DNA of 64,000 bases from Minisyncoccota bacterium. GTDB lineage: Bacteria; Patescibacteriota; Minisyncoccia; Phycocordibacterales; CAJBRS01. Shown one piece after another: positions 6,794-63,627 of this stretch (position 1 is its first letter; every line of letters begins with the position of its first letter). The position numbers were made by a program, and so were the translations under genes. The stretch spans positions 64,682 through 128,681 of the forward strand of contig JADGRH010000003.1 in the NCBI GenBank assembly GCA_017881075.1, in the 5' to 3' direction. The notes below the pieces were generated by a model. It was not told where the DNA came from, searched no databases, and saw only the letters and a program-made list of their open reading frames with translations.

Positions 6794-7705
6794 ATGGATC
6801 AATCTCAAAACTCCACTAGAGAATATTCTGCCATTAGCCCAACATCTCGCAGCTCATTTTGGATGAAAACTTTCACCGACATTCCTTACGTGCGGGAAAT
6901 ATACGACGAGCTGGAAAAAGGGAAGCAGAGTGGAGCGGAAAGCAAAATCAGGGATTACGGAATCAATCATGTTGGTCTCTCAAGTATTGCTCCATATTTT
7001 GAGGCGAGATACTTAATCATTAATAGATTATTGAAAGAAGTTGGAGCGACACAGATTATTGAATTAGCTTCCGGCCTCACTCCTCGGGGTCTTGAGCTTA
7101 CCAAAGATCCAAATATCACTTTCATCGAATTAGACCTCCCTGATGTAATCGAAGAGAAAAAGAAAATAGTGGAAAATATTATAAGAGAGCATAAAATCGG
7201 CGATCGTAACAATTTGTATCTGGAAGCAGGAAGCGCCCTGGAAGAAGCGGATATCATGAAAGCCGCCTCTCATTTTGATGAAAAGAAAGAGATCGCTATT
7301 ATTAATGAAGGATTACTTCGCTATCTGAAAAGAGACGAACAGGCAAAAATGGCTCAGGCGATCTTACCCGTGCTTCAAAAATTCGGGGGAGTATGGATCA
7401 CCCCTGATATTGGCATCAGAGATAAAATGCTGGCAGGACAAGCGAAATTGTCGCCGATATTCATAGACAGAACTAAAAAGTTGGAAAAAATGACGGGCGC
7501 TGGAAATTTTTCCGACAACCTTTTCGCCGATGCTGCAGAAGCCAAGGCAATCTATGAAAAACTAGGATTTGAGATAGAGATGCATACTTACTCTGAAGTA
7601 TCCGATCAACTCGTTTCACCCACTAAACTCGGTCAACCAAAAGAGATTACAGACTCACTTATGGAATGGAGCAAGGTCTTTGTGATGCACCCAAAGACCA
7701 AATAA
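6794..7705 (+). CDS. class I SAM-dependent methyltransferase (LCMT/TcmP-like)
   Basis: Motif I-like IIELASGLTPRG and acidic post-I FIELDLPDV; length and layout match leucine-carboxyl/O-methyltransferase-like proteins. Confidence 0.65.
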   Translation: MDQSQNSTREYSAISPTSRSSFWMKTFTDIPYVREIYDELEKGKQSGAESKIRDYGINHVGLSSIAPYFEARYLIINRLLKEVGATQIIELASGLTPRGLELTKDPNITFIELDLPDVIEEKKKIVENIIREHKIGDRNNLYLEAGSALEEADIMKAASHFDEKKEIAIINEGLLRYLKRDEQAKMAQAILPVLQKFGGVWITPDIGIRDKMLAGQAKLSPIFIDRTKKLEKMTGAGNFSDNLFADAAEAKAIYEKLGFEIEMHTYSEVSDQLVSPTKLGQPKEITDSLMEWSKVFVMHPKTK

Positions 7706-7737
7706 AAAATCCGGCCAGAGAATTCACGGGCCGGATT
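7704..7737 (-). terminator. conserved hairpin terminator, copy 2 of 3
   Basis: aaaaaatccggcc-N12-ggccggatt. The stem overlaps the TAA stop of 7736..8089; also sits just after the convergent methyltransferase gene. Confidence 0.8.
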
Positions 7738-8089
7738 ACGAAAAACTTCTGAGTCCTAACAGCATGATGATGGTATTTACCAAATCGTCAGGATGAGCCT
7801 CATGGGTGCATCGAAAATAATTCAACATAATCTGTCGGATACCGGGACTTTTGTCCACAACCACAATGGGTCCATTGCAATGAGGAGGAAGACTCTTCAG
7901 AAGTGCTCCGGTGTTGAACGTTTTTGACCCAACACAAGTTTCGACGGCTACAAGGTCATAACGATCAGATTCCTCAATCGCGAATCTAACGTCGTAGGCG
8001 TAGCTTGCGCTGACGTCATATTCCTCCAACCTCCTTTGCCACTCGGTCGCCAGGTCATTGTCATTAGTCACAATTAAGATATTCTTCAT
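7736..8089 (-). CDS. receiver-like single-domain protein, degenerate (Glu at phospho-acceptor position)
   Basis: Paralog of 6362..6733 and 9503..9856. YDLVAVETCVG replaces DLVVVDG; conserved C-T-H motif near the C-terminus. Confidence 0.65.
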   Translation of the reverse strand: MKNILIVTNDNDLATEWQRRLEEYDVSASYAYDVRFAIEESDRYDLVAVETCVGSKTFNTGALLKSLPPHCNGPIVVVDKSPGIRQIMLNYFRCTHEAHPDDLVNTIIMLLGLRSFS

Positions 8090-9350: not shown

Positions 9351-9470
9351 AGTGCTTTCCTCGGTTTGTGTTGTTCTTCTCTTCTGAAATCATATTACTT
9401 AAATAGGGGATTAGTTCAAGTTATGGGTTTTCCAAATTTTGAGCGGGTTTTTCACGAAATTGAAGAAAAT

Positions 9471-9504
9471 AAAAAATCCGGCCTGTGAATCGGTCGGCCG
9501 GATT
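9471..9504 (-). terminator. conserved hairpin terminator, copy 3 of 3
   Basis: aaaaaatccggcc-N12-ggccggatt; the stem overlaps the TAA stop of 9503..9856. Confidence 0.8.
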
Positions 9505-9856
9505 AAGAATAGCGCTTCAATTCAAGAAGAGTGACGATGAGAGACACCAACAAGTCCGGATGCGCGCCATGTGTGCATCCAAAATCTCTAATCATTGCCT
9601 GACGGATCTCCGAACTCTCGTCCACGATCACTATTGGTCCATTAGAATGGGCAGGGAGACTCTTGAGGAGTGGGCCCGTATTGAATGTCTTGGAGCCAAC
9701 GCAGGTCTCTACCGCCACGAGGTCATAACGGTCTTGATTGGAAACCGCATAACTTACGTCATAGGCGTAGCTTGCGTTGACTGCGTATTCATCCAGTCTA
9801 TTCCGCCAATCGGACAGATGGTCATTGTTAGTAGACACAATTAGGATAAACTTCAT
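9503..9856 (-). CDS. receiver-like single-domain protein, degenerate (Glu at phospho-acceptor position)
   Basis: Close paralog of 7736..8089 (shared YDLVAVETCVGSKTFNTG.LLKSLP, GCTH.AHPD). Confidence 0.65.
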   Translation of the reverse strand: MKFILIVSTNNDHLSDWRNRLDEYAVNASYAYDVSYAVSNQDRYDLVAVETCVGSKTFNTGPLLKSLPAHSNGPIVIVDESSEIRQAMIRDFGCTHGAHPDLLVSLIVTLLELKRYS

Positions 9857-28921: not shown

Positions 28922-29932
28922 ATGCCACTAATCGGAAAAGCGTCGCCGGAGGATATGAATTTACACCCAATGAAGTATCAGTGGGCCTATGATCTTTATA
29001 ATCAAGCAGTTCGAAATACATGGTTTCCTCATGAGATTGCTTTGAAGGAAGACTTGGAAGATTGGGAAAAGATGACGGAGGACGAAAGACACGCAGTGAA
29101 ATTCCTGATGGCCTTTTTTAATCCGGCCGAGCTGATCGTAAATCGCTCCATCGCTCTCGGCATTTATCCGTATCTGAAGTCGCCGGAGTGCCATCTCTAT
29201 CTAGCCAAGGTGATGTGGGAGGAGGCTAATCATTGCGTTGCTTTTGAGTATGTTCTAGAGACCTTTCCGCTCGATCGCGAAAAAGTTTTCGGCATTCATC
29301 TGGAAGTGCCCTCAATGAAGGCTAAGGAGGATTATATTTTTCGCTACATGAAACGCATGACCGAAAACACCTTGGATATTGAAACAGTAGAAGGGAAGAA
29401 GGATTTCATCCGCAACCTTGTGGCAACTAACATTGTCATGGAAGGCATCTGGTTTTATTCCGGTTTCATGGTGGCTCTTTCCTTTCGTCAGCGCAATCAG
29501 CTTCGCAATTTTGGCTCCATGATCAACTGGGTTTTGCGAGACGAGTCACTTCACTTAAAATTTGGCATCAATCTCATTCATACCATCCTGGAAGAGAACG
29601 CCGAGTTAATTACCGAAGAATTTGCCGCCGAGATTCGCAATATCGTTATTGAAGGAGTGGACAAAGAAGTGGCCTATAACAAGGATCTCTTTCCAAATGG
29701 TATTCTTGGTTTAAATGCCGACTATGTTAATCAGTATGTGCAGTATGTGGCTGACAGGCGACTGGAAGAGTTGGGAATGGAGAAACATTACAATGCTACT
29801 AATCCGGCCAAGTGGATGAGCACTGCAACTGATGTTTTTGAATTGGTTAATTTCTTTGAGGCGCAAAACACTAGCTACGAAGTGGATGCGAGAGCGCATT
29901 CGGAGAAAAAGAAAGATGAACCAGCCGTTTAA
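28922..29932 (+). CDS. nrdB: ribonucleoside-diphosphate reductase beta subunit
   Basis: Di-iron ligand motifs WEEANHCVAFEY and LRDESLH; about 336 aa. Confidence 0.9.
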   Translation: MPLIGKASPEDMNLHPMKYQWAYDLYNQAVRNTWFPHEIALKEDLEDWEKMTEDERHAVKFLMAFFNPAELIVNRSIALGIYPYLKSPECHLYLAKVMWEEANHCVAFEYVLETFPLDREKVFGIHLEVPSMKAKEDYIFRYMKRMTENTLDIETVEGKKDFIRNLVATNIVMEGIWFYSGFMVALSFRQRNQLRNFGSMINWVLRDESLHLKFGINLIHTILEENAELITEEFAAEIRNIVIEGVDKEVAYNKDLFPNGILGLNADYVNQYVQYVADRRLEELGMEKHYNATNPAKWMSTATDVFELVNFFEAQNTSYEVDARAHSEKKKDEPAV

Positions 29933-29940
29933 GGACGAAA

Positions 29941-30008
29941 CCTACAACTTTTTTAGAGACTAAGACTTGGGCAAACGCCCCGGAGTGGTCTCTAAAAAAG
30001 TTCGTAGG
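29941..30008. repeat. 68-nt conserved hairpin element, copy A
   Basis: ~20-bp stem with one bulged G closing a ~27-nt loop. The reverse complement matches 55728-55795, with all differences compensatory. Confidence 0.8.
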
Positions 30009-30057
30009 TGAGTCATTAAACGGACTTGTCTTATTTAAAAAATTTTATATAATAGAC

Positions 30058-30496: not shown

Positions 30497-30596
30497 ATTT
30501 GCATCGTCTTTTCAAGATGTTATAATAAATGAAAGCTAATGAAAGAATTTGCATCGTCTTTTCAAAATGTTATAATAAATGAAAGCTAATGGAAAA
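30497..30596 (+). repeat. 2 x 50-bp tandem duplication of promoter/start region
   Basis: atttgcatcgtcttttcaaRatgttataataaatgaaagctaatgRaaRa twice; includes an extended -10 tgttataat. Only copy 2 opens into the long ORF. Confidence 0.85.
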
Positions 30597-37924: not shown

Positions 37925-38154
37925 TTTTAGTCAGCTTATAGGTATTTAGCTGATAGCTTATAGTCTTTATTTTTTCTATAAGTTAATTTCCTATAAGCTA
38001 TAAGCTATTTAATAAAGTCGACCTATTTAATTCACATCGAAATTGTCGTCACCCTCATTATACATAAAAAGTATCTGTAATAGGAGTGAAATTCAATACG
38101 TCATATACTGTATACAGAAGGTCGCTACTTATTAATCCAATAACTCGTTTCTCT

Positions 38155-38778: not shown

Positions 38779-39678
38779 ATGAATGAAATTCTTATAACTA
38801 AAGCTTCTAAAGATTACGAGCTTATTGATAGTGGAAAAGGGGAGAAACTGGAACGATACGGTCAGTTTGTTTTGCGTCGGCCGGATCCGCAGGCTCTTTG
38901 GCCTAGATTTTTAAATAAGGAAGTTTGGGAAAAGGCCGACGCCATTTTCGCCCCGCCTCGGGCGGGACAGGGTGGCGTCGGCAAACCGAGTTGGACATTA
39001 AAATCCGGCATTCCTAATAGCTGGCAGATTAATTTTGGCGGATTGAAATTTGTAATTAAACTGACAGCTTTCAAGCATACCGGTCTTTTTCCGGAGCAAC
39101 TGTCTAATTGGGAATGGATTGAGGAAAGAGTAAGGGCGGCCGCCGGAGGCACAGGCGGCCGCCAGTTGTCTATTCTCAATCTCTTCGGTTACACAGGCGG
39201 TGCAAGCCTCGCTGTCGCCAAAGCTGGTGCCTCTGTCACCCACGTGGATGGCTCTAAAAGCGCCATAACTTGGGCTAAAGGGAACGCCGAGGCCTCCGGC
39301 CTCGGCTCCGCCCCCATCCGCTGGATTCTCGACGATTGCCGCAAATTTCTAGAACGAGAGATAAAAAGAGGTAATCACTACGACGGCGTTATCATGGATC
39401 CGCCCGCCTTCGGCCATGGGCCAAATAAGGAGCTGTGGAAGATAGAGGACCATTTTTTAAAACTTTTAGAACTATCTTTTCAAGTTCTTTCGCTGAATCC
39501 CGCTTTCTTTTTGATTAACGGTTATGCTTCTGGATACTCGGCAGTAGCTTATGAAAATAATTTGAAAGTACTCGTAGATAAATTCGGCGGCAAAATTGAA
39601 AAAGGGGAACTCACCATCATGGAATCCACTGGTAAGCGCCTCTTACCTTGTGGCATTTTTGCCAGATGGGCTGATTAA
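38779..39678 (+). CDS. class I SAM-dependent methyltransferase (RlmI/RlmK-like)
   Basis: LNLFGYTGGASLAVAKAGA (motif I), VTHVDGSK, VIMDPPAFG (motif IV DPP). Confidence 0.7.
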   Translation: MNEILITKASKDYELIDSGKGEKLERYGQFVLRRPDPQALWPRFLNKEVWEKADAIFAPPRAGQGGVGKPSWTLKSGIPNSWQINFGGLKFVIKLTAFKHTGLFPEQLSNWEWIEERVRAAAGGTGGRQLSILNLFGYTGGASLAVAKAGASVTHVDGSKSAITWAKGNAEASGLGSAPIRWILDDCRKFLEREIKRGNHYDGVIMDPPAFGHGPNKELWKIEDHFLKLLELSFQVLSLNPAFFLINGYASGYSAVAYENNLKVLVDKFGGKIEKGELTIMESTGKRLLPCGIFARWAD

Positions 39679-43539: not shown

Positions 43540-44793
43540 TTATTTTAAGGCTAGATTTCCATTAGCTCCGAAATCGGATTTCGGGTTTTTGTCACTTAAA
43601 TAATTGAAATAACCAGCCATGGCGATCATAATGGCGTTGTCGGTGGAGAGGTGGGAGTCGGGAATTAGGAGTTGGGTGTCAGGAGAAGCAGCGATTAAAT
43701 CTTGAAAGGAGCGGCGGAGGTGGGTATTGGCGATTACACCTCCGCCGACTATTAGAGTTTTAATATCAAATTCTTCAATGGCTCGTTTGGTTTTGGTAAT
43801 CAATACTTCAGTGACCGAATCTTCAAATTCTCTGGCCATTTTTGCTTTCCATTCTGGATCTGATTTTTCTTTGTCGGTCATTTTTTTAATTGTGTAAAGG
43901 ACGGCAGTTTTCAATCCGGAAAAAGAGAAATCGTAATCGTTTGATTTGATCATTGGTCTGGGCAAAACAAAGTTGCAGAGGTTTGACCTCTGCAAGTGAT
44001 CTGCAGAGGTCAGACCTCTGCAACGCTCTAAATCGGCCAATTTTGAGATTTCAGGCCCGCCAGGGTAGGGAAGATCCAGCATTCTAGCCACCTTATCAAA
44101 AGCTTCTCCAACCGCGTCATCACGAGTTTGACCAATGATTTTGTATTTTTTCCATGCTTCAATTAAGACTAGCTCAGTATGGCCACCGCTAATGAGAAGT
44201 GCTAAAGCTGGAAAAGAAAAGCTGACAGTTGGTAACTGATAGCTTTCAGCTTTAGATTTTTTTGGTAATAAAGCTGACATAATGTGTCCTTCCATGTGAT
44301 TAGTAGGAATGACAGGCAGATCCCAAACGAATCCCAACGCCTTGGCAAAATTAATACCGACCCAAAGTGCTGGCTCAAGACCGGGGCCGGTGGTGACGGC
44401 AATGGCTTCAATATCCGGCTTAGGAATTGTCGGAATAAATTTAAGAAATTGTTCGAGTAATTCAGGCTCGCGTTCTAGGATCTTTTTCAAACCCCCTCCA
44501 ACTCCCCCTTGTCTAAGGGGGAGAGGAAGCCCCCCCTCCTCAAACGAGGAGGGGGTAGGGGGTGGTGTTGAACCCAATTTATCTAATAACTCTTTTAACA
44601 ACGGAATCAGATTTCTAGAATGCTCTCTCTTCGCCATCATCGGATACACTCCGCCATATTTTTCATGAATTTTAGTCTGGGAATTAAGCGCTTCAGCAAT
44701 CACTTTAAATTGAGGTCGCTCAAAACCGCCATTGGATTCCACGATAGCGAGCGCTGTTTCATCACAGCTAGTTTCAATACCTAGGATTTTCAT
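43540..44793 (-). CDS. tsaD: tRNA N6-adenosine threonylcarbamoyltransferase TsaD, with two insertions
   Basis: MKILGIETSCDETALAIV, NHMEGHI, GGVIAN. 417 aa vs a typical ~340. Confidence 0.9.
   Translation of the reverse strand: MKILGIETSCDETALAIVESNGGFERPQFKVIAEALNSQTKIHEKYGGVYPMMAKREHSRNLIPLLKELLDKLGSTPPPTPSSFEEGGLPLPLRQGGVGGGLKKILEREPELLEQFLKFIPTIPKPDIEAIAVTTGPGLEPALWVGINFAKALGFVWDLPVIPTNHMEGHIMSALLPKKSKAESYQLPTVSFSFPALALLISGGHTELVLIEAWKKYKIIGQTRDDAVGEAFDKVARMLDLPYPGGPEISKLADLERCRGLTSADHLQRSNLCNFVLPRPMIKSNDYDFSFSGLKTAVLYTIKKMTDKEKSDPEWKAKMAREFEDSVTEVLITKTKRAIEEFDIKTLIVGGGVIANTHLRRSFQDLIAASPDTQLLIPDSHLSTDNAIMIAMAGYFNYLSDKNPKSDFGANGNLALK
43973..44022. repeat. two tandem palindromes inside the tsaD CDS
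   Basis: ttgcagaggtttgacctctgcaa (43973-43995) and tgcagaggtcagacctctgca (44002-44022); they encode part of ...CRGLTSADHLQRSNLCN. Confidence 0.8.
44502..44554. repeat. two GC-rich perfect hairpins inside the tsaD CDS
   Basis: ctccccctt-gtct-aagggggag (44502-44523) and ccccctcctc-aaac-gaggaggggg (44531-44554); they encode PSSFEEGGLPLPLRQGG. Confidence 0.8.
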
Positions 44794-45835: not shown

Positions 45836-46432
45836 TTATACGTATTGTGGGTTCTTTTTGAGCTTGTTAATTTCTTTCACTAATTCTCCGATATGGATCT
45901 CCAAGTTCTGTGTTCGCTCCGCCAGTTTTATTTCCAGTTGATTTGAATGTTTGGCCATTGTTTCGGCGATCTTCATCATTTCAGTTACATCTTCTATGGC
46001 CAAAAGAATAATTGGTGGAAATATTTTTGAGGCACTTTCTTCTTGAAAATGTATTTGCCGAGCATTTAAGATCATTACCTTACGGCCGATGGAAGGAAAT
46101 TCATGGGCCACTTCAAAACCTTTGAGGAAAGTATTTTTAGGTAGAATGTCTTCCAATAGATCACGCAGTGATGGGATATTCCATTGACCATTACCGAGTT
46201 CATAAACATGCGTATGAGTAGTATCTTTTTCTTCCACTTGAAACATCTTGTAGAAGGACTCGTTGGCCGCCATGACACAGAGATCTTTATTAAGGATTAA
46301 GACTGGTTCCCGTACTACATCCACTACCGTTTTAATGTATGTCCATCCTTCTGCCGATAAGCGCTCGAAAAAACTAGCCCCAAATGGCTTAGAAGACTCG
46401 GCTATCTCATTTTTAGGTGCTTTCATATTCAT
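45836..46432 (-). CDS. PAS (PAS_10-like) domain protein with C-terminal coiled coil
   Basis: REPVLILNKDLCVMAANESFYKMFQV...YELGNGQWNIPSLRDLLEDILP...ILNARQI matches the PAS domain seen in CheB/CheR-fusion sensor proteins. Confidence 0.65.
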   Translation of the reverse strand: MNMKAPKNEIAESSKPFGASFFERLSAEGWTYIKTVVDVVREPVLILNKDLCVMAANESFYKMFQVEEKDTTHTHVYELGNGQWNIPSLRDLLEDILPKNTFLKGFEVAHEFPSIGRKVMILNARQIHFQEESASKIFPPIILLAIEDVTEMMKIAETMAKHSNQLEIKLAERTQNLEIHIGELVKEINKLKKNPQYV

Positions 46433-46570
46433 ATAGCCGAGAGCGTGCCTAAAGCATTACAGCTTGCTATAAGTAGCATAATGTGATAGGCTTAAAGTCT
46501 AGTTACAGTCTCCTTGGTGGCAACACTGAAATACTCTTGTAATAGAAGCTCGCCGCGTGCGGCATATCTT

Positions 46571-47104
46571 ATGATTAGTCCAAAACAACTGACAAAGATG
46601 CAGGGGGTATTAACGAGCGCCCACCTCGACTTTGAAAGGGCGCTTAATAAACATGCCTTTTTCAAGGTAAATGACCATAATATCGGTGAAGATTTGGTAC
46701 AAGACACTTTCCTAAAAACATGGGCCTACCTTGTAAAAGGTGGGGAGATTGTTTTGATGAGAGCTTTTTTATATCACATCCTCAACAATCTCATTATTGA
46801 TCAATATCGAAAACCAAAAACAACCTCTCTTGACGTTTTGCTTGAAAAAAACTTTGAGCCGAGCACCGATATTACCGATAGCCTTTTTAATATCATTGAT
46901 GGCAAAGCAGCCGCTTTACTCATTGAACGTCTGCCTGAAAAATACCAAAAGGTCATGAAGATGCGACACATAGAGCTTCTGTCACTTAAAGAAATATCCG
47001 CCATCACCGGACAATCCCAAAATACCATTGCCGTTCAAACCCATCGCGGATTAATGAAACTGAAGGTGTTGTATGATAATCCTCTACCGGGTGGAGCAGA
47101 TTAG
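46571..47104 (+). CDS. RNA polymerase sigma-70 family factor (ECF-like)
   Basis: Region 2 EDLVQDTFLKTWAY...YHILNNLIIDQYRK. Region 4 LPEKYQKVMKMRHIELLSLKEISAITGQSQNTIAVQTHRGLMKLK. Start uncertain (46514/46571/46598). Confidence 0.8.
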   Translation: MISPKQLTKMQGVLTSAHLDFERALNKHAFFKVNDHNIGEDLVQDTFLKTWAYLVKGGEIVLMRAFLYHILNNLIIDQYRKPKTTSLDVLLEKNFEPSTDITDSLFNIIDGKAAALLIERLPEKYQKVMKMRHIELLSLKEISAITGQSQNTIAVQTHRGLMKLKVLYDNPLPGGAD

Positions 47105-47209: not shown

Positions 47210-47791
47210 ATGAAAAAATACAAAAAGGACCTTGGCCGAGAATTTAATCAAGCGGAGATAGATTTTATCGAGCGTATAGATAAAGAAAGTAGGTTATATA
47301 TTAAGACCTTGGTGGATATTGTCCGGGAGCCAATTTTAATACTTGATGAAGATCTTCGGGTGAAGATGGCCAACGAGTCCTTCTACAAGATGTTTCAAGT
47401 GGAAGAAAAAGATACTACTCATATGCATGTTTATGAACTCGGTAATGGTCAGTGGAATATTCCTGCTCTCCGAAAACTTCTTGAAGAGATTCTGCCTAAA
47501 AATACCTTCTTCAAAGGTTTTAATGTTACTCATGAGTTTCCTATAATCGGCCAGAAATCAATGGTCTTAAATGCCCGCAAGATTTATTTCGCGGATAACA
47601 CTACTCCACAAATATTTCCGTCTATTATCTTTCTTGCTATAGAAGACAACACCGCAATGATGGCTGTTGCTGAAACTCTGGCTATTCACGTAAAAGAACT
47701 TGCATCTAAAAATGCAGAACGAACCTGGAAACTAGAAATGTATATCTCTAAATTAGAAAAAGAAATTAATGAAATCAAGGAGAATATTTAG
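47210..47791 (+). CDS. PAS (PAS_10-like) domain protein with C-terminal coiled coil, paralog of 45836..46432
   Basis: About 75% identical to the paralog over the PAS core (ESFYKMFQVEEKDTTHMHVYELGNGQWNIPALRKLLEEILPKNTFFKGF...). Confidence 0.65.
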   Translation: MKKYKKDLGREFNQAEIDFIERIDKESRLYIKTLVDIVREPILILDEDLRVKMANESFYKMFQVEEKDTTHMHVYELGNGQWNIPALRKLLEEILPKNTFFKGFNVTHEFPIIGQKSMVLNARKIYFADNTTPQIFPSIIFLAIEDNTAMMAVAETLAIHVKELASKNAERTWKLEMYISKLEKEINEIKENI

Positions 47792-55705: not shown

Positions 55706-55727
55706 TTTGTCCTACTTCGAAATCTCG

Positions 55728-55795
55728 TCTACGAACTTTTAAACAGACCACTCCGGGGCGTTTGCCCAAGTCTTAGTCTGTTTAAAAGTTGTAGA
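55728..55795. repeat. 68-nt conserved hairpin element, copy B
   Basis: tctacgaacttttaaacagac-[loop cactccggggcgtttgcccaagtctta]-gtctgtttaaaagttgtaga. Lies between the divergent lepB and pth genes. Confidence 0.8.
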
Positions 55796-55824
55796 CTTCG
55801 CTTCCGAAGTAGTAAGATACAAAG

Positions 55825-56415
55825 ATGTTTTATATTATTGGCCTAGGAAATCCTGGAGAAGAGTACGACAACACTCGACACAATGTCGGCAGAATGAGCG
55901 TGGAAATTTTCAGCAAGAATCATAAGCTTCCTGAATTTTCCATAAATAAAAAATTAAGAGCGCTGGTGTCCGAGGGGAAGGTCGGCCGCGATAAAGTGAC
56001 GCTTGTCTTGCCGGAAACTTTTATGAATAAGTCCGGTGAATCGGTGAAGCCGATAATTACCAGTAAGAAAAAAGCGGCCAGTCTTGTTGTTGTTTCCGAC
56101 GACCTGGACTTGCCGCTCGGCCGTTTCAAGATTGCTTTCAATCGCGGCTCCGGCGGACACAAGGGCGTGGAGTCCATTATTCGAGCGGTGAAGACAGAAG
56201 AATTTATCAGAGTGAAAGTGGGTATCTCACCCTCGACCGCCTCCGGTAAATTAAGAAAGCCCGACAGCAAAGAAATTCTAGATTTCATCATTGGTAAATT
56301 TAAAAAGCCAGAATTGGAAAAAATGAAGAAAGTTTTTAAAAAAGTCTCCGAAGCACTCGAGATGATTGTTGTTGAAGGAAAAGATAGAGCCATGGGAGAA
56401 TTCAATAGCCGATAA
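55825..56415 (+). CDS. pth: peptidyl-tRNA hydrolase
   Basis: IIGLGNPGEEYDNTRHNVG, ...VVSDDLDLPLGRFKI...GGHKG. Confidence 0.9.
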   Translation: MFYIIGLGNPGEEYDNTRHNVGRMSVEIFSKNHKLPEFSINKKLRALVSEGKVGRDKVTLVLPETFMNKSGESVKPIITSKKKAASLVVVSDDLDLPLGRFKIAFNRGSGGHKGVESIIRAVKTEEFIRVKVGISPSTASGKLRKPDSKEILDFIIGKFKKPELEKMKKVFKKVSEALEMIVVEGKDRAMGEFNSR

Positions 56416-56419
56416 AATT

Positions 56420-56662
56420 ATGGATTCCAATTGGAAAGAAGAAAATAATTTTTTAAAAGCCACCTTTAAATTTAAAGATTTTAAAGAAGCACTTATTTTT
56501 GTAAATAAGGTGGGGGAGTTGGCCGAGCGACAGAATCATCATCCTGATATATGCATCAAGGATTATAACACCGTCACCATCGCCACCACTTCTCACGACG
56601 CCGGAAAGACTGTCACTCAAAAAGACCATGATCTTGCTAAAGCGATTGATGACTTGAGCTGA
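56420..56662 (+). CDS. 4a-hydroxytetrahydrobiopterin dehydratase (PCD/DCoH)
   Basis: FKDFKEALIFVNKVGELAERQNHHPD...TTSHDAGKTVTQKD; ATG at 56420. Confidence 0.85.
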   Translation: MDSNWKEENNFLKATFKFKDFKEALIFVNKVGELAERQNHHPDICIKDYNTVTIATTSHDAGKTVTQKDHDLAKAIDDLS

Positions 56663-56778
56663 AACAGACCCACCTTTACTTTTGCCCTCCTTTTGAGTAA
56701 TTTGAGACTAGAGTTTCGTTGAAAACTACACAAATTTTCGGTTCAAACACAAACAAAAAAAGGAGAAAGTAGCAGCTT

Positions 56779-59700
56779 ATGATAACAACTCTCTACCAGA
56801 GTAACGGCGATAATCGTCGTGAATTTTGTTTCTGCGTGGAGACTAGTGCTCCGCTCACAGAAACAGAAATGCAGTTATTGCACGGGCTTCTGGCTGAGAC
56901 TTCTCAACCAGAGCTTACCAGAACAAATTCATTTTTGTCTGGCGGTGTAATGCAAGTAGGTCCGCGGCCGGCAGTTGAAACTGCGGCGTCATCAAACGCT
57001 GTGGCCATCTGTCGCTCTTTGGGAATTAACAAGGTGACGCGCATTGAAACTTTGCGCCGATACCTCCTTCCTATGGAAGGTCCATTCGATCGGATGACGG
57101 AGTGTGTCTACAACGTCATTCCTGAATCGTTCACCAATAACACAACTCCCGAGCCAGTCAGCATCATTCCGCTCATCGAGGATGGGCCGAAGGCGCTTCA
57201 AGTCATTAATCGTGACTGGGGTTTGGGCATGGATGACTTCGACATCGAGTTCAATTACGATCTCTTCGCGAACGTCTTCAAACGGAATCCGACAATCGTC
57301 GAGTGTTTCGGTTTGGCTAATGCGAACAGTGAACATTCTCGGCACTGGTTCTTCAAAGGGAAGATGATTATTGATGGCATTCCGATGCCACGCTCGCTGA
57401 TGCAGTTGGTAAAAGAATCACTTCGTCTGCTGGGCCAACATTCAAACAGTGTCATCGCCTTTGCCGATAACTCAAGTGCCATTCAAGGGCGCGAGATCAA
57501 GGTTCTCGTTCCGGCTCAAGTCGGTCCGAGGGCATTCAGTCTGCGACATCGCTTGTACGACATTATCTTCACTGCGGAAACCCACAATCATCCAACGATG
57601 GTTGAAGAGTTTCGCGGGGCTGAGACGGGTACCGGTGGTCGCATTCGCGATATTCAAGCCACCGGTCGCGGTGGTTTAGTGGTTGCGGGAACTGCCGGCT
57701 ACTGTGTCGGCAATCTCTTGATTCCGGGATTCAGTATTTCGGGTGAAAATCTAGATTTCAAATATCCCGAGAAATATCGGCGACCGCTCCAAATTCTCAT
57801 CGGCGCCTCTAACGGTGCTTCCGATTACGGAAATAAATTCGGCGAGCCGCTTATCAACGGCTTTGTTCGAAGTTTCGGTCTCTCTTTACCTAACGGCGAG
57901 CGGCGTGAGTGGATCAAACCAATTATGTTCACCGGAGGCATTGGCCAAATGGAGAGGAGTCATGTAAAGAAACGCAACCCCCAGAAGGGGATGTTCATCA
58001 TTCAGATCGGCGGTCCAGCATATCGGATTGGTCTCGGCGGCGGTGCAGCTTCAAGCATGACTCAAGGACAAAACACCGAGAATCTCGACTTTAATTCCGT
58101 CCAACGCGGCAACGCGGAGATGGGACAAAAAGTGAATCGTGTTGTTCGTGCCTGCGTGGAACTTCGAGAGAAGAATCCCATTCTCTCTATTCACGATCAG
58201 GGTGCGGGCGGACCATGCAATGTGCTTACAGAGCTGGTTCATCCGGCAGGTGGCAAGGTGAATATCCGCGCCATCAATGTTGGTGATACCAGTATGTCGG
58301 TTTTGGAAATCTGGGGGGCGGAGTATCAAGAGAGACTAGCCATTCTTCTTAAGCCGGAGGACCTGGAAATGTTTCAGGAAATCTGTGCGAGGGAAGTGGT
58401 GCCGTGTGAAGTCTTGGGAGAGGTGACGGGCGATGGCAACATCACTGTTTATGACTCTAATGACGGAACAACTCCTGTTAACCTGGTCTTGGATAAAATC
58501 CTTGGCTCGGTTCCGCAGAAAACTTTTCGGTCAGATTATCCGAACATGAAGCTTCAACCACTAGCAATTCCTTCAGAGGAGTCGGTGGGAGAGCTTCTCA
58601 AGAAAGTTCTTCGTCTCCCTTCAGTGGGATCGAAGGGTTACCTCATTCGGAAAGTCGATCGGAGCGTTACGGGTTTGGTTGCGCAGCAGCAGTGCTGTGG
58701 GCCGCTGCATCTTCCTGTTAGTGATTTCGCAGTCTGTGCTCAAAGTCATTCCGATCTCTTCGGTATGGCGACGGCGAACGGCGAACAGCCGATTAAGATG
58801 CTTGTGAATGCGGGGGCGGGCGCTCGGATGGCGATCGGCGAAATGTTGACCAACATCGTCTGGGTCAAGTCGGAAGGATTGGTGACTATTAAGTCGTCAG
58901 GTAATTGGATGTGGCCGGCAAAACTTCCCGGCGAAGGAGCTCTCATTTACGATGCGGCGGCCGCAGCTAGCGACTTGCTCGTCGCACTTGGAGGAGCGGA
59001 AATTGATGGAGGTAAGGACAGTCTTTCCATGGCGGCCAGTTTTGATGGAGAGACGGTCAAAGCACCGGGGCAATTTGTGGTGTCGGGGTACGTCGCCGTG
59101 CCGGATATCACGAAGAAAGTTACGCCCGATCTGAAAAAATGGGGGAAAAGCAAACTTGCTCTCATCGATATATCCGCGGGACAGTCTCGTCTCGGCGGAT
59201 CGGCGCTTGCACAAGCATTTGGACAGATCGGAAACGAAAGTCCTGATGTCGATGGTCCGATACGCCTTCGCCGCGGGTTTGAGGCAGTGCAGGAAATGAT
59301 TGATCAAGGTTTAATTTTGTCAGGGCATGATCGGAGTGACGGTGGCCTCATCGTAGCTTTGGTCGAAATGGCTCTGGCAGGAAATATCGGGATCGATGTG
59401 ATTCTAAAGGGTCAATACGACGAGGTGGCGAGACTGTTTGCCGAAGAGCTTGGTCTCTTGATTGAGTATTTGCCGGAGAAGGAAGAAGAAATTCTCTCTG
59501 TGCTGGATAAACATTTTCAGCATTTACCTCTGGACGAGTGCTTCCATGAGCTCGGCTCTACAACAGTGGACAGCAGAGTGAAGATTGGTTTCGACGGTCT
59601 CGATTCGACAGATGTCGTATTAAATGAAGACCTAGAAACAATTCGCTCCTGGTGGGAAGCGACGAGTGATAAACTCGAGGAGTTCCAGATGAATCCCGAG

Positions 59701-60615
59701 TGTGCGAAAGCAGCTGCGTCTGCTAGACGTCAGCATGTGCCTTGCTCGCATCTCTCATTTACTCCGTCGACAACACCGAAAGAGTGGATGAAGAGGGATG
59801 GTAGGCCAAGAGTGGCAATCGTTCGTGAGGAGGGATCAAACGGCGATCGGGAAATGGCGGCAGCTTTCTACGCTGCTGGCTTTGAGCCCTGTGATGTGCC
59901 AATGGCAGACCTTCTGAAAGGAAAAATTAATCTCAACGATCCTCGCGTGGGGTTCCGAGGAGTCGCCTTTGTTGGAGGATTCTCCTATGCCGACGTCTTT
60001 GGCAGTGCCAAGGGCTGGGCGGCAATCATTCGTTCAAACGAGCGACTGAAAGAGATGTTCGAGACGTTTAAACGACGTTCCGACACTTTCTCTCTGGGAG
60101 TCTGTAACGGCTGTCAGCTGATGGCCATTCTCGGATGGGTTCCGGGAATCGTCGAAGATGAGCGCGACCAATTACGGTTTGTGCACAACACGTCGGGGAG
60201 ATTTGAATCAAACTGGCTGCGTGTGCGAATCGAAAAAAGTCCTGCAATCATGCTTCGGGAAATGGAAGGGTCCGTTCTCGGAGTATGGGTTGCTCATGGC
60301 GAAGGGAGACTCTTTGCTCCAAAGGAAGAGATTCTCCTCGACGTCATTGAAAGGAGGCTAGCGCCGATGGTTTATGTGGATCAAGGGGAAATTTCTACGG
60401 AGTCTTATCCCTTAAATCCGAATGGCTCGCCAAGAGGAATCACTTCACTGTGTTCACCTTGCGGCAGACATTTGGCAATGATGCCTCATCCGGAACGCAG
60501 TTTTCTGAAATGGCAATGGCCGTGGTTGCCCAAAGAAGTGGCCGAAGCCGAAGTCTCGCCATGGCTCCGACTATTCCAAAATGCCCGTGAGTGGTGCGAG
60601 TTAAGAGAAGTGTAG
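56779..60615 (+). CDS. purL: phosphoribosylformylglycinamidine synthase, single-chain large form
   Basis: 1278 aa. FGAM synthetase core (TAETHNHPT, GGRIRD...), C-terminal glutaminase with GVCNGCQ nucleophile and MPHPER. Strong SD aaaggag. GC-richer than flanks. Confidence 0.9.
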   Translation: MITTLYQSNGDNRREFCFCVETSAPLTETEMQLLHGLLAETSQPELTRTNSFLSGGVMQVGPRPAVETAASSNAVAICRSLGINKVTRIETLRRYLLPMEGPFDRMTECVYNVIPESFTNNTTPEPVSIIPLIEDGPKALQVINRDWGLGMDDFDIEFNYDLFANVFKRNPTIVECFGLANANSEHSRHWFFKGKMIIDGIPMPRSLMQLVKESLRLLGQHSNSVIAFADNSSAIQGREIKVLVPAQVGPRAFSLRHRLYDIIFTAETHNHPTMVEEFRGAETGTGGRIRDIQATGRGGLVVAGTAGYCVGNLLIPGFSISGENLDFKYPEKYRRPLQILIGASNGASDYGNKFGEPLINGFVRSFGLSLPNGERREWIKPIMFTGGIGQMERSHVKKRNPQKGMFIIQIGGPAYRIGLGGGAASSMTQGQNTENLDFNSVQRGNAEMGQKVNRVVRACVELREKNPILSIHDQGAGGPCNVLTELVHPAGGKVNIRAINVGDTSMSVLEIWGAEYQERLAILLKPEDLEMFQEICAREVVPCEVLGEVTGDGNITVYDSNDGTTPVNLVLDKILGSVPQKTFRSDYPNMKLQPLAIPSEESVGELLKKVLRLPSVGSKGYLIRKVDRSVTGLVAQQQCCGPLHLPVSDFAVCAQSHSDLFGMATANGEQPIKMLVNAGAGARMAIGEMLTNIVWVKSEGLVTIKSSGNWMWPAKLPGEGALIYDAAAAASDLLVALGGAEIDGGKDSLSMAASFDGETVKAPGQFVVSGYVAVPDITKKVTPDLKKWGKSKLALIDISAGQSRLGGSALAQAFGQIGNESPDVDGPIRLRRGFEAVQEMIDQGLILSGHDRSDGGLIVALVEMALAGNIGIDVILKGQYDEVARLFAEELGLLIEYLPEKEEEILSVLDKHFQHLPLDECFHELGSTTVDSRVKIGFDGLDSTDVVLNEDLETIRSWWEATSDKLEEFQMNPECAKAAASARRQHVPCSHLSFTPSTTPKEWMKRDGRPRVAIVREEGSNGDREMAAAFYAAGFEPCDVPMADLLKGKINLNDPRVGFRGVAFVGGFSYADVFGSAKGWAAIIRSNERLKEMFETFKRRSDTFSLGVCNGCQLMAILGWVPGIVEDERDQLRFVHNTSGRFESNWLRVRIEKSPAIMLREMEGSVLGVWVAHGEGRLFAPKEEILLDVIERRLAPMVYVDQGEISTESYPLNPNGSPRGITSLCSPCGRHLAMMPHPERSFLKWQWPWLPKEVAEAEVSPWLRLFQNAREWCELREV

Positions 60616-60728
60616 TGTAGGTTGCCCTGTCCGTTCGTACGCGAATGGCCGGGGCACTTTTATTTTTAATTTAGACCAATTTGTTTTTGTTTATATTTCT
60701 GCTAATCTGAATCGAGAAGAATTTCATT

Positions 60729-61400
60729 ATGAGTAGAATAAAAACAGCAAAGTTTGTTGAACCGAACGATCCGGTTCTCACTAGGGTCGCCGAAGAAGTG
60801 TACTTGCCGGAACTTTTTTCTGAGGAGATTTCCGACTATATAGACACCATGTTCTATATGGCGAGGGAGAATCAGTCGAACAGGGGTGAGCGAGTGTTAG
60901 TCGGCCTTGCCGCGCCACAGATTGGCATTTCCAAACGAATCATTCTAGTGGATGTCATTGCCGACGGAGAAGGAGAAGTGGGAGACCTACGTCTCTACAT
61001 CAATCCGAAGATCACTTGGCGCTCGGAAGAGGAGAGCGAGTGGTATGAAGGGTGTTTTTCTACGAGTTGTGTTTGCGGTGTATTTTTACGACCAACCACA
61101 ATAAGGGTTAAGGCTCTGAAAATCGATTGGAAGAAAAAGACCATGGAGACGTCAGAAGAAGAGGAGTATTCCGGTTACGTCGCCCGCATCTTCCAACACA
61201 AAATTGATCACTTAGATCGAAAGGAATTCACCACTCATGTGACGGATCCTGAAAAACTTCACTGGGTAGAGAAGGACGAATTCTTTGAGTATCGTGATAA
61301 GCAGGGCTGGAAAAACTGGCCAAATAAATGCTCTCTCGATGATTGGGAGAAAATCAAACTTTTTGGGCTCCTCGCCCGGAAAGTGATCGCTCGGGAATAG
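60729..61400 (+). CDS. peptide deformylase-like protein with Glu-to-Lys change in the HExxH motif
   Basis: Motif 1 GLAAPQIG, motif 2 EGCFS, motif 3 reads QHKIDH (cac aaa att gat cac at 61196-61210) instead of QHExDH. Extra insertions. Confidence 0.7.
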   Translation: MSRIKTAKFVEPNDPVLTRVAEEVYLPELFSEEISDYIDTMFYMARENQSNRGERVLVGLAAPQIGISKRIILVDVIADGEGEVGDLRLYINPKITWRSEEESEWYEGCFSTSCVCGVFLRPTTIRVKALKIDWKKKTMETSEEEEYSGYVARIFQHKIDHLDRKEFTTHVTDPEKLHWVEKDEFFEYRDKQGWKNWPNKCSLDDWEKIKLFGLLARKVIARE

Positions 61401-61431
61401 GTATTCCGAGCGATTTTTATTTAACAGCTAT

Positions 61432-62556
61432 CTACGCGTGCTCTACAAACGAGAGAGCCATCTTTTGCTCTTTGGCATCAAAGAGAGTGATGCGGAAGGT
61501 GTAGCTTTTGCCGAGCTCCAGTTTTTGTCGGAGTTTTTCTTCACTACCGAATTCGGAGATATGAACGAGGCCGGCGACACCCTCTTCAATGGAAGCAAGA
61601 GCACCATGCTTATTGAACTTAATAATAACAGCTTGAACAACGTCATCTTTTTTATATTTTTTCTCCGCCTCTTTCCATGGATTTTCTTTCAAAGCCTTAA
61701 TGGAGAGAGAAATCTTGCCGTCCTTAATCTCAATAATCTTTACCTTCACTTTATCACCAACGCTGAAAAGGGTTCGCGGATCGTCTATCAACGACCAGTC
61801 AATTTCAGAGATGTGAACCAATCCTTCCAATCCTTCCTCAACTCTGACGAAGACGCCGAAGTCCACCATACCTGTTACTTCGCCTTCCATTTCATCACCG
61901 ACGGTATATTTGCCGATGATTTTTTCTTTATCTTTCAATTCCGGATTCTTTTCGGAGAAAATAAGTTTGCCCTCTTTTGGCAGAGCGGAGATAACGGCAA
62001 CGGAAATTTTCTGGCCAATTAATTTTTTTAGCTCTTCTAAAATCTTGTCCTTGTCGCCATCCATTACCCGAGGGTAATGCTCAGTCTTTAATTGTGAAGC
62101 TGGCAAGAATCCCTGGAGGCCCTGCCAGGTCAAAATAAGCCCACCTTTGTTTGCTTCAATTACAAGAAGATCCAAAATGCGTTTATCGCGAATAGCTGAT
62201 TCCGCCTCGCTCCAAATGAGGGCCTGTTTTGCTTCCTTCAGAGAGAGTTCCAGATATCCTTCAACATTTTCCAAGTCAACAACCTTGGCCGCCACTCGGT
62301 CGCCAATGTTTATTCTCTTAATGATGTCTCGGGCGTTGATGTATTCCTTGCCGTAGATGATACCGGTACCATATGGAGGCAGATCAACAAAAACACCGCT
62401 TTTATCAATAGCGATAACAGGACCTTCCACAAGGTCTCCGACACTTGGAGGAGTGACGGAATCATTGAGGAATTTCCCCATAGCGTTTTCTTTTTTTGGT
62501 TTAGCCTCTTTTTCCTGTTTTTCTACTTCAGCTTGGGCTGTAATTGTTTTTGGCAT
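61432..62556 (-). CDS. rpsA: 30S ribosomal protein bS1 (four S1 domains)
   Basis: Repeated S1 OB-fold motifs (G..V.G.V......G.FV.L....EG..H.SE.). Confidence 0.85.
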   Translation of the reverse strand: MPKTITAQAEVEKQEKEAKPKKENAMGKFLNDSVTPPSVGDLVEGPVIAIDKSGVFVDLPPYGTGIIYGKEYINARDIIKRINIGDRVAAKVVDLENVEGYLELSLKEAKQALIWSEAESAIRDKRILDLLVIEANKGGLILTWQGLQGFLPASQLKTEHYPRVMDGDKDKILEELKKLIGQKISVAVISALPKEGKLIFSEKNPELKDKEKIIGKYTVGDEMEGEVTGMVDFGVFVRVEEGLEGLVHISEIDWSLIDDPRTLFSVGDKVKVKIIEIKDGKISLSIKALKENPWKEAEKKYKKDDVVQAVIIKFNKHGALASIEEGVAGLVHISEFGSEEKLRQKLELGKSYTFRITLFDAKEQKMALSFVEHA

Positions 62557-62807
62557 ATTAATTTTTGTACAAAAAATATCCCCGCGTTTCGCCTGAAAAT
62601 CTATCGTGACAAGGGCGAGATTACGCTACAGGGGTTTGGTTGGTAATAAGATGAGTATATAGGAGAAAAGGGATTTGTAAACACACATAGGCCGCAACAT
62701 ACTCGATATCAGCCTAACTATGGTTCCAATCCTTGACCCCCAGCTAGACAATTTTCCTTTCTATGATAGTAGAAAATACCCGACATCGGATATCGGGTTC
62801 GAGCGAA

Positions 62808-62999
62808 GCCAAAAGACTCTTGCGAAACCCACGCAGGAGCTTAGAAAATTAAGAGGCAAAAAGCTTCAGAACGGAGGAGACTGTTTGAGCGAAGCGAGTT
62901 TGACGGAGTAGGAGCTTTTTGACTCTATAATTTTCTTGAGCGACGAGTTAAGCAAAAACTCACCAGAGTTTTATGCGGGTTCCGCAAGAGTCTTTTGGC
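62808..62999. other. ~192-nt nested imperfect palindrome (candidate structured RNA or MITE-like element)
   Basis: Outer arms 62808-62830 / 62977-62999 (23 bp, 1 mismatch). Inner arms ~62837-62867 / 62912-62941 (about 24 of 29). 44-nt centre; asymmetric 6/35-nt internal loop. Confidence 0.6.
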
Positions 63000-63021
63000 A
63001 GAGCTATGTTATAATCCCGCC

Positions 63022-63627
63022 ATGGTAATCACATATCACGGACTGGAATTTTTTAAATTACAGCTAGGGGACTTAACAATTGCCCTAAATCCTCCATCAA
63101 AGGAGTCTAAATTCAAGGCGCCAAGATTCGGTGCTGATATTGTTCTTATTTCAATGAATAATCCCGATATGAACGGAGCCGAGCAGATGTCTCATGGCGA
63201 CCGCCAACCTTTTGTCATCTCCGGCCCGGGCGAATACGAAGTAAAAGAAATATTTATTAAAGGTTTCCCCGATTCTGCAAATACTATTTACACCCTATCT
63301 CTTGATGGAATGAATCTCTGTTTTCTCGGAGCGTTGTCGTCAAAAGAATTACCAAAAGAAACCGTGGAATCTTTAGACGACATCGATATATTATTTGTGC
63401 CGATCGGTGGCCACGGAGTGCTTGCCCCACCTGAGGCCTATAAACTGGCAGTCAGTTTGGAACCGAAAATTGTCATCCCTATGCATTATGTAGATGCCGA
63501 CAAAGCCCCACTGAAAGCCTTTCTCAAAGAGTCAGGGGAAGAAGTCAAAGCAATTGACAAGCTGACCATTAAGAAGAAAGATTTGGAAGGTAAGGAAGGA
63601 GATGTAATTATATTAAGTGCTGTCTAA
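63022..63627 (+). CDS. MBL-fold (UPF0173-like) protein with degenerate metal-binding motif
   Basis: MVITYHGLEFFKLQLGD..IALNP resembles the family N-terminus. The HxHxDH position reads ISMNNPDMNG. ATG at 63022; extended -10 tgttataat upstream. Confidence 0.6.
   Translation: MVITYHGLEFFKLQLGDLTIALNPPSKESKFKAPRFGADIVLISMNNPDMNGAEQMSHGDRQPFVISGPGEYEVKEIFIKGFPDSANTIYTLSLDGMNLCFLGALSSKELPKETVESLDDIDILFVPIGGHGVLAPPEAYKLAVSLEPKIVIPMHYVDADKAPLKAFLKESGEEVKAIDKLTIKKKDLEGKEGDVIILSAV

Follow-up and report, generated by a model that had tools for sequence, protein, structure and literature searches.

Among described systems, the MITEs that fold into a hairpin over their whole length, such as Correia/NEMIS of Neisseria, ERIC/IRU of enterobacteria, and RUP of pneumococcus, are non-coding, intergenic sequences of 100–200 nt. 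They are bounded by terminal inverted repeats of about 20–26 bp, form a long imperfect hairpin, and are present or absent between related genomes; they occur in tens to hundreds of copies with target-site duplications, and several have a cognate IS. REPINs, which are REP doublets mobilised by RAYT, and the Rickettsia palindromic elements (RPEs) are likewise long hairpin palindromes scattered in small genomes. The small genomes of CPR/Patescibacteria are usually thought to be repeat-poor and, to our knowledge, there are hardly any descriptions of mobile or self-propagating palindromes from this group. Our literature search for 6S RNA or MITEs in CPR/Patescibacteria found nothing relevant.

Here, we analyzed a 192-nt nested hairpin located at positions 62808–62999 of a 64,000-nt stretch of DNA (hereafter, the window) from a genome of Paceibacteria (Parcubacteria, CPR), in the spacer between the divergently transcribed rpsA gene and a gene encoding an MBL-fold hydrolase. 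The element resembles the hairpin MITEs in its length, its terminal repeats, its non-coding and intergenic nature, and its absence from related genomes, but, unlike them, is known from a single copy, shows no visible duplication, and has no transposase among the window ORFs scanned. We favour, with a probability of about 0.5, the reading that it is not a conserved housekeeping RNA gene but an orphan insertion of nested palindromic DNA, non-coding and specific to this lineage. It would be a mobile element of the hairpin type, similar to a MITE, REPIN, or RPE, or what remains of such an element. Its newness is modest, as it is a so-far single-copy case within the wide range of intergenic inserts that form hairpins, and little changes as matters stand: the locus carries an orphan insert in a lineage-variable spacer, and the proposal of a 6S RNA fails its tests. 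The features of the locus are listed below.

61432–62556, minus strand: rpsA, encoding three S1 domains
62654–62681, minus strand: rpsA promoter, TTTACA-16-TATACT, found by promoter scan, with TATACT conserved in relatives
62685–63005: lineage-specific segment of the rpsA/MBL divergent spacer, ~321 nt, delimited by blastn and multiple alignment
62778–62798, minus strand: small hairpin of 9 bp followed by AUUUUCU, found by terminator scan
62797–62809, plus strand: GTTCGAGCGAAGC, one of two copies of a 13-nt direct repeat (GTTYGAGCGAAGC); the other, GTTTGAGCGAAGC, lies at 62883–62895
62808–62830: outer left arm of stem P1 (5′ strand on the plus strand)
62839–62941: inner long hairpin P3, ~28 bp with three 1-nt bulges, from MFE folds and ungapped arms
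62935–62948: related repeat, TTGAGCGA-CGAGTT
62952–62976: side hairpin P2, 25 nt, GCAAAAACTC-ACCA-GAGTTTTATGC, abutting the outer right arm
62977–62999: outer right arm of P1, pairing with 62808–62830 at 22/23 positions
63007–63015, plus strand: extended −10 sequence TGTTATAAT of the MBL gene, ending 6 nt before the ATG
63022, plus strand: ATG of the MBL-fold gene (Lactamase_B_3 domain)

The nested hairpin is real and very stable. A preliminary description of this DNA, made from the sequence alone, had placed it between rpsA and an MBL gene, and the domains listed above bear out this setting. The names that databases give to the nearest homologues assign the organism to Paceibacterota/Parcubacteria. 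The outer arms, GCCAAAAGACTCTTGCGAAACCC and GGGTTCCGCAAGAGTCTTTTGGC, lie where they had been reported, with a single mismatch over 23 bp (96% complementary) and 146 nt between them. When sites similar to the arms were searched for in the 64-kb window with up to three mismatches, only these two were found, against 0.00 expected from shuffles. The outer stem may be extended by 3 bp, AGC at 62802–62804 pairing with GCT at 63003–63005 across a 3 × 3 loop. The reported inner pair also exists: its ungapped arms (62845–62865 and 62913–62933) match at 81%, and about 28 bp form when bulges are allowed. These close an apical region of ~43 nt (62868–62910) that reads GGAGGAG and GGAGUAGGAG on the plus strand, and CUCCUCC and CUACUCC on the minus strand. 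The three occurrences of a gagcga-type motif that had been noticed were all found; GAGCGAAGC is present in the 64 kb at 62801 and 62887 only, GAGCGACG lies at 62938, and the motif is part of the 13-nt direct repeat.

The two stems had been described as separated by an asymmetric internal loop (6 nt versus 35 nt), the whole forming an extended rod with a large bubble. The 35-nt side holds the side hairpin P2, which had been overlooked. Since P2 is formed by 25 bases of the supposed loop, the molecule folds into a three-way junction instead of a bubbled rod. This shape, with P1, P2, and P3 as near-perfect helices joined by linkers of 8 nt (62831–62838) and 10 nt (62942–62951), was predicted by both MFE and centroid folds on both strands. 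For a 241-nt region, the folding energy was −98.9 kcal/mol (z −9.4) for the plus strand, −91.2 kcal/mol (z −9.3) for the minus strand, and −51.9 kcal/mol (z −9.9) with DNA parameters, and none of 200 shuffles matched the fold energy of this region. The z-scores are thus similar for RNA of either strand and for DNA, and this lack of strand preference argues for an insertion.

The architecture bears directly on the proposal that the element is a divergent 6S RNA (ssrS), which would mimic an open promoter and sequester the RNA polymerase holoenzyme. Described 6S RNAs (RF00013 and relatives) are of similar size and pair extensively from end to end, in keeping with the ~190 nt and the overall extended pairing seen here, and some 6S RNAs carry a short hairpin to one side of their central part. 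However, no open central bubble is present, the junction strands being only 8 and 10 nt long between near-perfect helices. An Rfam scan of 4227 families, including RF00013, gave no relevant match: over the whole window, only RNase P and tRNAs reached the gathering score, and in the region 62500–63100, even at E ≤ 10, neither 6S nor related models matched and the only match was a spurious one to anti-hemB on the small hairpin. Furthermore, promoter scans predicted no promoter for such an RNA, and the element is missing from the spacers of the relatives L004, L006, and L007-9 and from the region upstream of the MBL gene in L003; the preliminary description itself had held that a lack of structural conservation in related genomes would speak against 6S RNA. 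The 6S identity is therefore rejected on the grounds of covariance model, architecture, conservation at the locus, and promoter absence, and we regard it as the remotest of the explanations considered here.

Two other possible assignments within the spacer were discarded. The ORF 62720–62911 (63 aa), already called unconvincing in the preliminary description, has no Pfam match and no homologue in Logan, ENA, or JGI gene calls. The sequence GGTTCCAATCC at 62722 was considered as a tRNA fragment and rejected, the would-be T stem having only 2 bp when inspected by eye.

Comparison with related genomes showed that the hairpin lies in a variable part of the spacer. The rpsA(−)/MBL(+) synteny is kept in the closest relatives retrieved, L004, L007-9, and L006, whose S1 proteins are 88%, 84%, and 83% identical and whose MBL proteins are 78%, 77%, and 77% identical to those encoded here, respectively. 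The distance between the two genes is 199, 179, and 163 nt in these relatives, versus 465 nt here. In blastn comparisons, homology stops at 62684 on the left and restarts at 63006 on the right, leaving 321 nt without counterpart, and the relatives carry in its place 49–105 nt of unrelated sequence. In L003, whose MBL protein is 90% identical and whose upstream neighbour is a different gene, common sequence begins only at 63006. The segment 62685–63005 is thus missing in the relatives, and these, with S1 identities of at most 88%, are too diverged to define an empty site to the exact base. The insertion is supported by this ~320-nt segment missing from syntenic relatives, by the variability of the spacer, by the 23-bp terminal repeats, by the lack of a credible ORF, of an Rfam family, and of a promoter upstream of the hairpin on either strand, and by the other long palindromes of the window.

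The same spacer contains other sequences elsewhere. In L004, the closest of the syntenic relatives, an unrelated hairpin (L004:1911–1998) has perfect 16-bp arms, GTGCCGTTCCTATTTC and GAAATAGGAACGGCAC, and a predicted free energy of −42 kcal/mol (z −5.3). Genes are found between rpsA and MBL in L033 (a GATase), in L037 (a 142-aa ORF), and in the contig of P0126 (a 239-aa ORF). On the other side, in the stretch 55825–62556, purL (56779–60615) and def (60729–61400) lie between pth and rpsA here only, unlike in L004, L006, L007, and L037. Judging from these gene orders, the rpsA/MBL neighbourhood appears to be a rearrangement hot spot.

Two Logan contigs that are 100% identical to the window break within the hairpin, one ending at 62849 and the other beginning at 62871. 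A Logan contig of the organism of L004 (L005) also breaks within the L004 hairpin; because this hairpin is unrelated, such breaks are attributed to the way in which hairpins in general disturb assembly and are not taken to indicate repeats. A practical consequence is that hairpins of this kind break short-read assemblies.

Breaks of this sort could also be expected from an inverton, in which the 23-bp repeats would serve as recombination sites flipping the 146-bp interior and altering the expression of rpsA or MBL. Invertons such as fimS-type elements and the invertible promoters of Bacteroides are likewise inverted repeats around ~150 bp immediately upstream of a gene, and our locus resembles described invertons in the length of its repeats, in the size of its interior, and in lying immediately before the start of a gene; a perfect TATAAT is also present inside (62926–62931). 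However, the interior is itself mostly palindromic, so that flipping would alter little, and the internal TATAAT lacks a −35 or a TG and is not a convincing promoter. No serine or tyrosine recombinase, and hence no invertase nearby, was found among the ORFs scanned in the 64 kb. Moreover, the Logan contigs end away from the inner edges of both repeat pairs, and a Logan contig breaks likewise inside the unrelated L004 hairpin. An inverton is thus very improbable.

The spacer that holds the element contains the promoters of two divergent genes. On the rpsA side, homology with L004 reaches 62684, and the promoter is conserved in relatives along with a leader of ~95 nt. Since this promoter separates the hairpin from rpsA, the leader does not include the hairpin, whose identity as part of it was ruled out. 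On the other side, the MBL gene is apparently leaderless, since its extended −10 ends 6 nt before the ATG; a −10-like hexamer is also found 6–7 nt before the MBL ATG in L003, L004, L006, and L007. The hairpin is therefore located upstream of both divergent promoters, and it fills the position of the MBL −35.

In the favoured reading, the element would have entered the locus as DNA, at a site flanked by the −35 of rpsA and the promoter of MBL, in a spacer between divergent promoters that probably tolerates insertions. The MBL gene would have kept working because an extended −10, leaderless promoter requires no −35, and the rpsA promoter would have been kept apart from the element by ~120 nt and by the minus-strand terminator-like hairpin. 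The nesting of an unrelated inner hairpin within the outer stem suggests that one palindrome was inserted in the loop of another. Any function would then be secondary, for instance as a cruciform under the supercoiling caused by divergent transcription, or as an incidental structured RNA.

The small hairpin at 62778–62798, which had been noted as a separate structure and was found as such, counts against an insertion: it resembles an intrinsic terminator and, on the minus strand, follows the big hairpin at a distance of 9 nt, and a random DNA insert would not readily account for it. This adjacent, rightly oriented terminator-like hairpin, together with the anti-Shine-Dalgarno-like apical loop, makes a young, lineage-specific, minus-strand sRNA gene the most serious rival to the insertion. 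Such a gene, of ~230 nt, would run from ~63003 to 62770, starting from a weak TATAAC that mirrors the MBL −10, with a 5′ end within a few bases of the hairpin, and ending at the terminator-like hairpin and its U-run. The near-palindromic TTATAA core at 63010–63015 could fire both ways. The apical region, CU-rich on the minus strand with two anti-Shine-Dalgarno-like motifs, could pair with a Shine-Dalgarno sequence or bind S1, and an sRNA of this type may also have been co-opted from a palindromic insertion.

Several observations weigh against this sRNA. Scans of both strands for sigma-70-like and extended −10 promoters detected nothing upstream of the hairpin, and the minus-strand candidate fails even a lenient scan, the TATAAC being without a final T, a −35, or a TG. 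A near-perfect 23-bp RNA duplex is a substrate of RNase III, and the P1 stem would be one. The sRNA is not conserved in any relative examined and belongs to no Rfam family. The pairing itself points both ways: the sole mismatch of the outer arms, A.C when read on the plus strand, is a G.U pair on the minus strand, in favour of a minus-strand RNA, whereas two G.U pairs of the P3 stem are confined to the plus strand. These mismatches (two G.U on the plus strand versus one on the minus strand) are uninformative and favour neither strand. Taken together, we consider a minus-strand sRNA unlikely, while giving it more weight than any other rival.

Returning to the insertion, copies of the element were searched for in this genome and in large sequence collections. 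The preliminary description had pointed to further copies of the outer arm as a mark of a MITE; neither the arms nor any other part of the element turned up a second time in the 64-kb window or in the 4.6 kb beyond it (Logan contig L001). A 332-nt segment compared with the rest of the window by blastn-short and nhmmer gave nothing above chance, the best match being a 14-mer in rpsA (E = 0.06). Exact 19-mers of the arms were present at seven loci in 185,579 GTDB species genomes, 13 in JGI metagenomes, and three in IMG/VR viral contigs. Each of these loci has just one arm, sits in an unrelated gene or organism, and is similar over no more than 19–24 nt, and these counts are in the range expected by chance for collections of such sizes. 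No two-arm match was found in the same three collections, and blastn against phage and plasmid collections did not retrieve the element.

No target-site duplication was seen: the flanks at 62808/62999 (CGAGCGAA and AGAGCTAT) contain no direct repeat adjoining both ends, nor do those at the alternative boundary 62802/63005 (GGGTTCG and ATGTTAT). The Pfam scan of window ORFs of at least 110 aa detected no domain of a transposase, integrase, RAYT, invertase, or reverse transcriptase. An identity of the element as a transposon was rejected, as no scanned ORF carries a transposase domain. The features of a MITE that are present are the 23-bp terminal repeats at 96%, the length of 192 nt, and an overlapping ORF with neither Pfam match nor homologue. 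The MITE reading of the preliminary description thus retains the terminal inverted repeats, the non-coding nature, and the look of an insertion, but not the second copy, the target-site duplication, or the transposase. Because none of the latter three was found in the searched DNA, with no second copy in ~68 kb of this genome, MITE membership is compatible with the data but unproven.

A retron was also considered. On the minus strand, the order of terminal duplex, short hairpin, and long hairpin resembles the a1/a2, msr, and msd parts of a retron msr-msd. This identity was rejected, since a terminator-like hairpin and rpsA follow downstream on the minus strand and no reverse transcriptase (RVT domain) was found there or in any other ORF scanned across the 64 kb.

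Several other long palindromes, unrelated to the focal element, are present in the window; they are either missing in relatives or contained in a gene. Hairpins of a two-copy family, ~100 nt each, are found at 29925–30023 (between nrdB and the RNase P RNA) and, in the opposite orientation, at 55715–55812 (in the divergent spacer of an S26 peptidase gene and pth). The two copies have in common a 77-nt core at 87% identity, with an identical 27-nt apex, TAAGACTTGGGCAAACGCCCCGGAGTG. Their stems differ by paired substitutions (TAGAGAC/GTCTCTA versus AACAGAC/GTCTGTT), and their outer stem extensions are unrelated between copies and self-complementary in each. No 55715-type hairpin was seen in the counterpart spacer of L006 and L007; in Rfam, the family matched only generic miRNA-precursor models far below threshold, and no match was found in viral contigs. 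Within tsaD (43540–44793, minus strand), a near-perfect 53-nt palindrome lies in frame at 43972–44024 (about residues 257–274), in a stretch that has 14 extra residues in an alignment with E. coli TsaD, and a second insertion of ~48 aa occupies residues 77–124. An imperfect palindrome at 39112–39186, with 33-nt arms matching at 76% around GGCGGCCGCC, is located inside a methyltransferase ORF (38779–39678), and a AGCTTATAG-rich nested palindrome, also imperfect, lies at 37933–38007, downstream of a pilin-like gene.

Of these, the tsaD palindrome is RPE-like and the two-copy ~100-nt family is REPIN-like. In contrast to REPINs and RPEs, no RAYT (Y1 transposase) is encoded in the window, and the focal element is unrelated to the other palindromes and about twice their size. 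The two-copy family also bears on the possibility that the focal palindrome arose locally as the DNA was replicated, through template switching or inverted duplication, and was never mobile, the identity of its arms being kept by quasi-palindrome correction. The outer extensions of that family, unrelated yet self-complementary, look like palindromes growing outward in place, and a local origin would fit the single copy everywhere searched and the lack of a target-site duplication and of a transposase in the scanned window ORFs. However, neither arm is recognisably ancestral, the 320 nt aligning with no relative and with no other part of the window, and several separate events would have to be assumed to produce two unrelated palindromes, one nested in the other, together with a side hairpin. 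We thus hold a local origin to be improbable.

A broader reading would be that this genome propagates or generates long DNA hairpins by an undescribed route, the focal element being possibly co-opted as a ~230-nt minus-strand RNA with anti-Shine-Dalgarno loops. Behind it stand at least four unrelated long palindromes in 64 kb, with no transposase, RAYT, or recombinase in view; we treat it as speculative and, like a local origin, improbable. The cluster of unrelated long palindromes, including the tsaD case, is nevertheless a more interesting lead than the focal element. The finding would matter more if the full genome proves rich in hairpins, and in-frame palindromes in essential genes such as tsaD would parallel the RPEs of Rickettsia in a second lineage of reduced, host-dependent bacteria.

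Repeats of other kinds were also observed in the window. Two pairs of diverged paralogous sequences have identities of 71–75%: an inverted pair (45852–46373 and 47263–47784) flanks a sigma-factor gene (46514–47104), and a direct pair of 117-aa ORFs (7700–8089 and 9467–9856) flanks a deoxyhypusine-synthase-like gene. A tandem duplication of a 50-nt unit, with 94% identity between copies, is located at 30497–30596, downstream of the RNase P RNA and upstream of a TPR gene at 30589. As each unit contains TGTTATAAT, the same extended −10 as in the MBL promoter, this tandem repeat may be a duplicated promoter.

Finally, the rpsA 5′ leader (62557–62650, minus strand) is conserved upstream of rpsA in L004, L006, L007, L033, and L037. 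An Rfam scan of the region 62500–63100 at E ≤ 10 matched no family to it. The leader contains a three-part stem, CCCC/GCG/CGCC pairing with GGCG/CGC/GGGG around a conserved loop, UUGUCACGAUAG, followed by AUAUUUUUU. It has an attenuator- or terminator-like appearance, and compensatory changes are found in L007 (ACG..CGU and CACC..GGUG). This conserved, covarying, terminator-like leader is also a more interesting lead than the focal element, and represents a candidate S1 autoregulatory leader in Paceibacteria.
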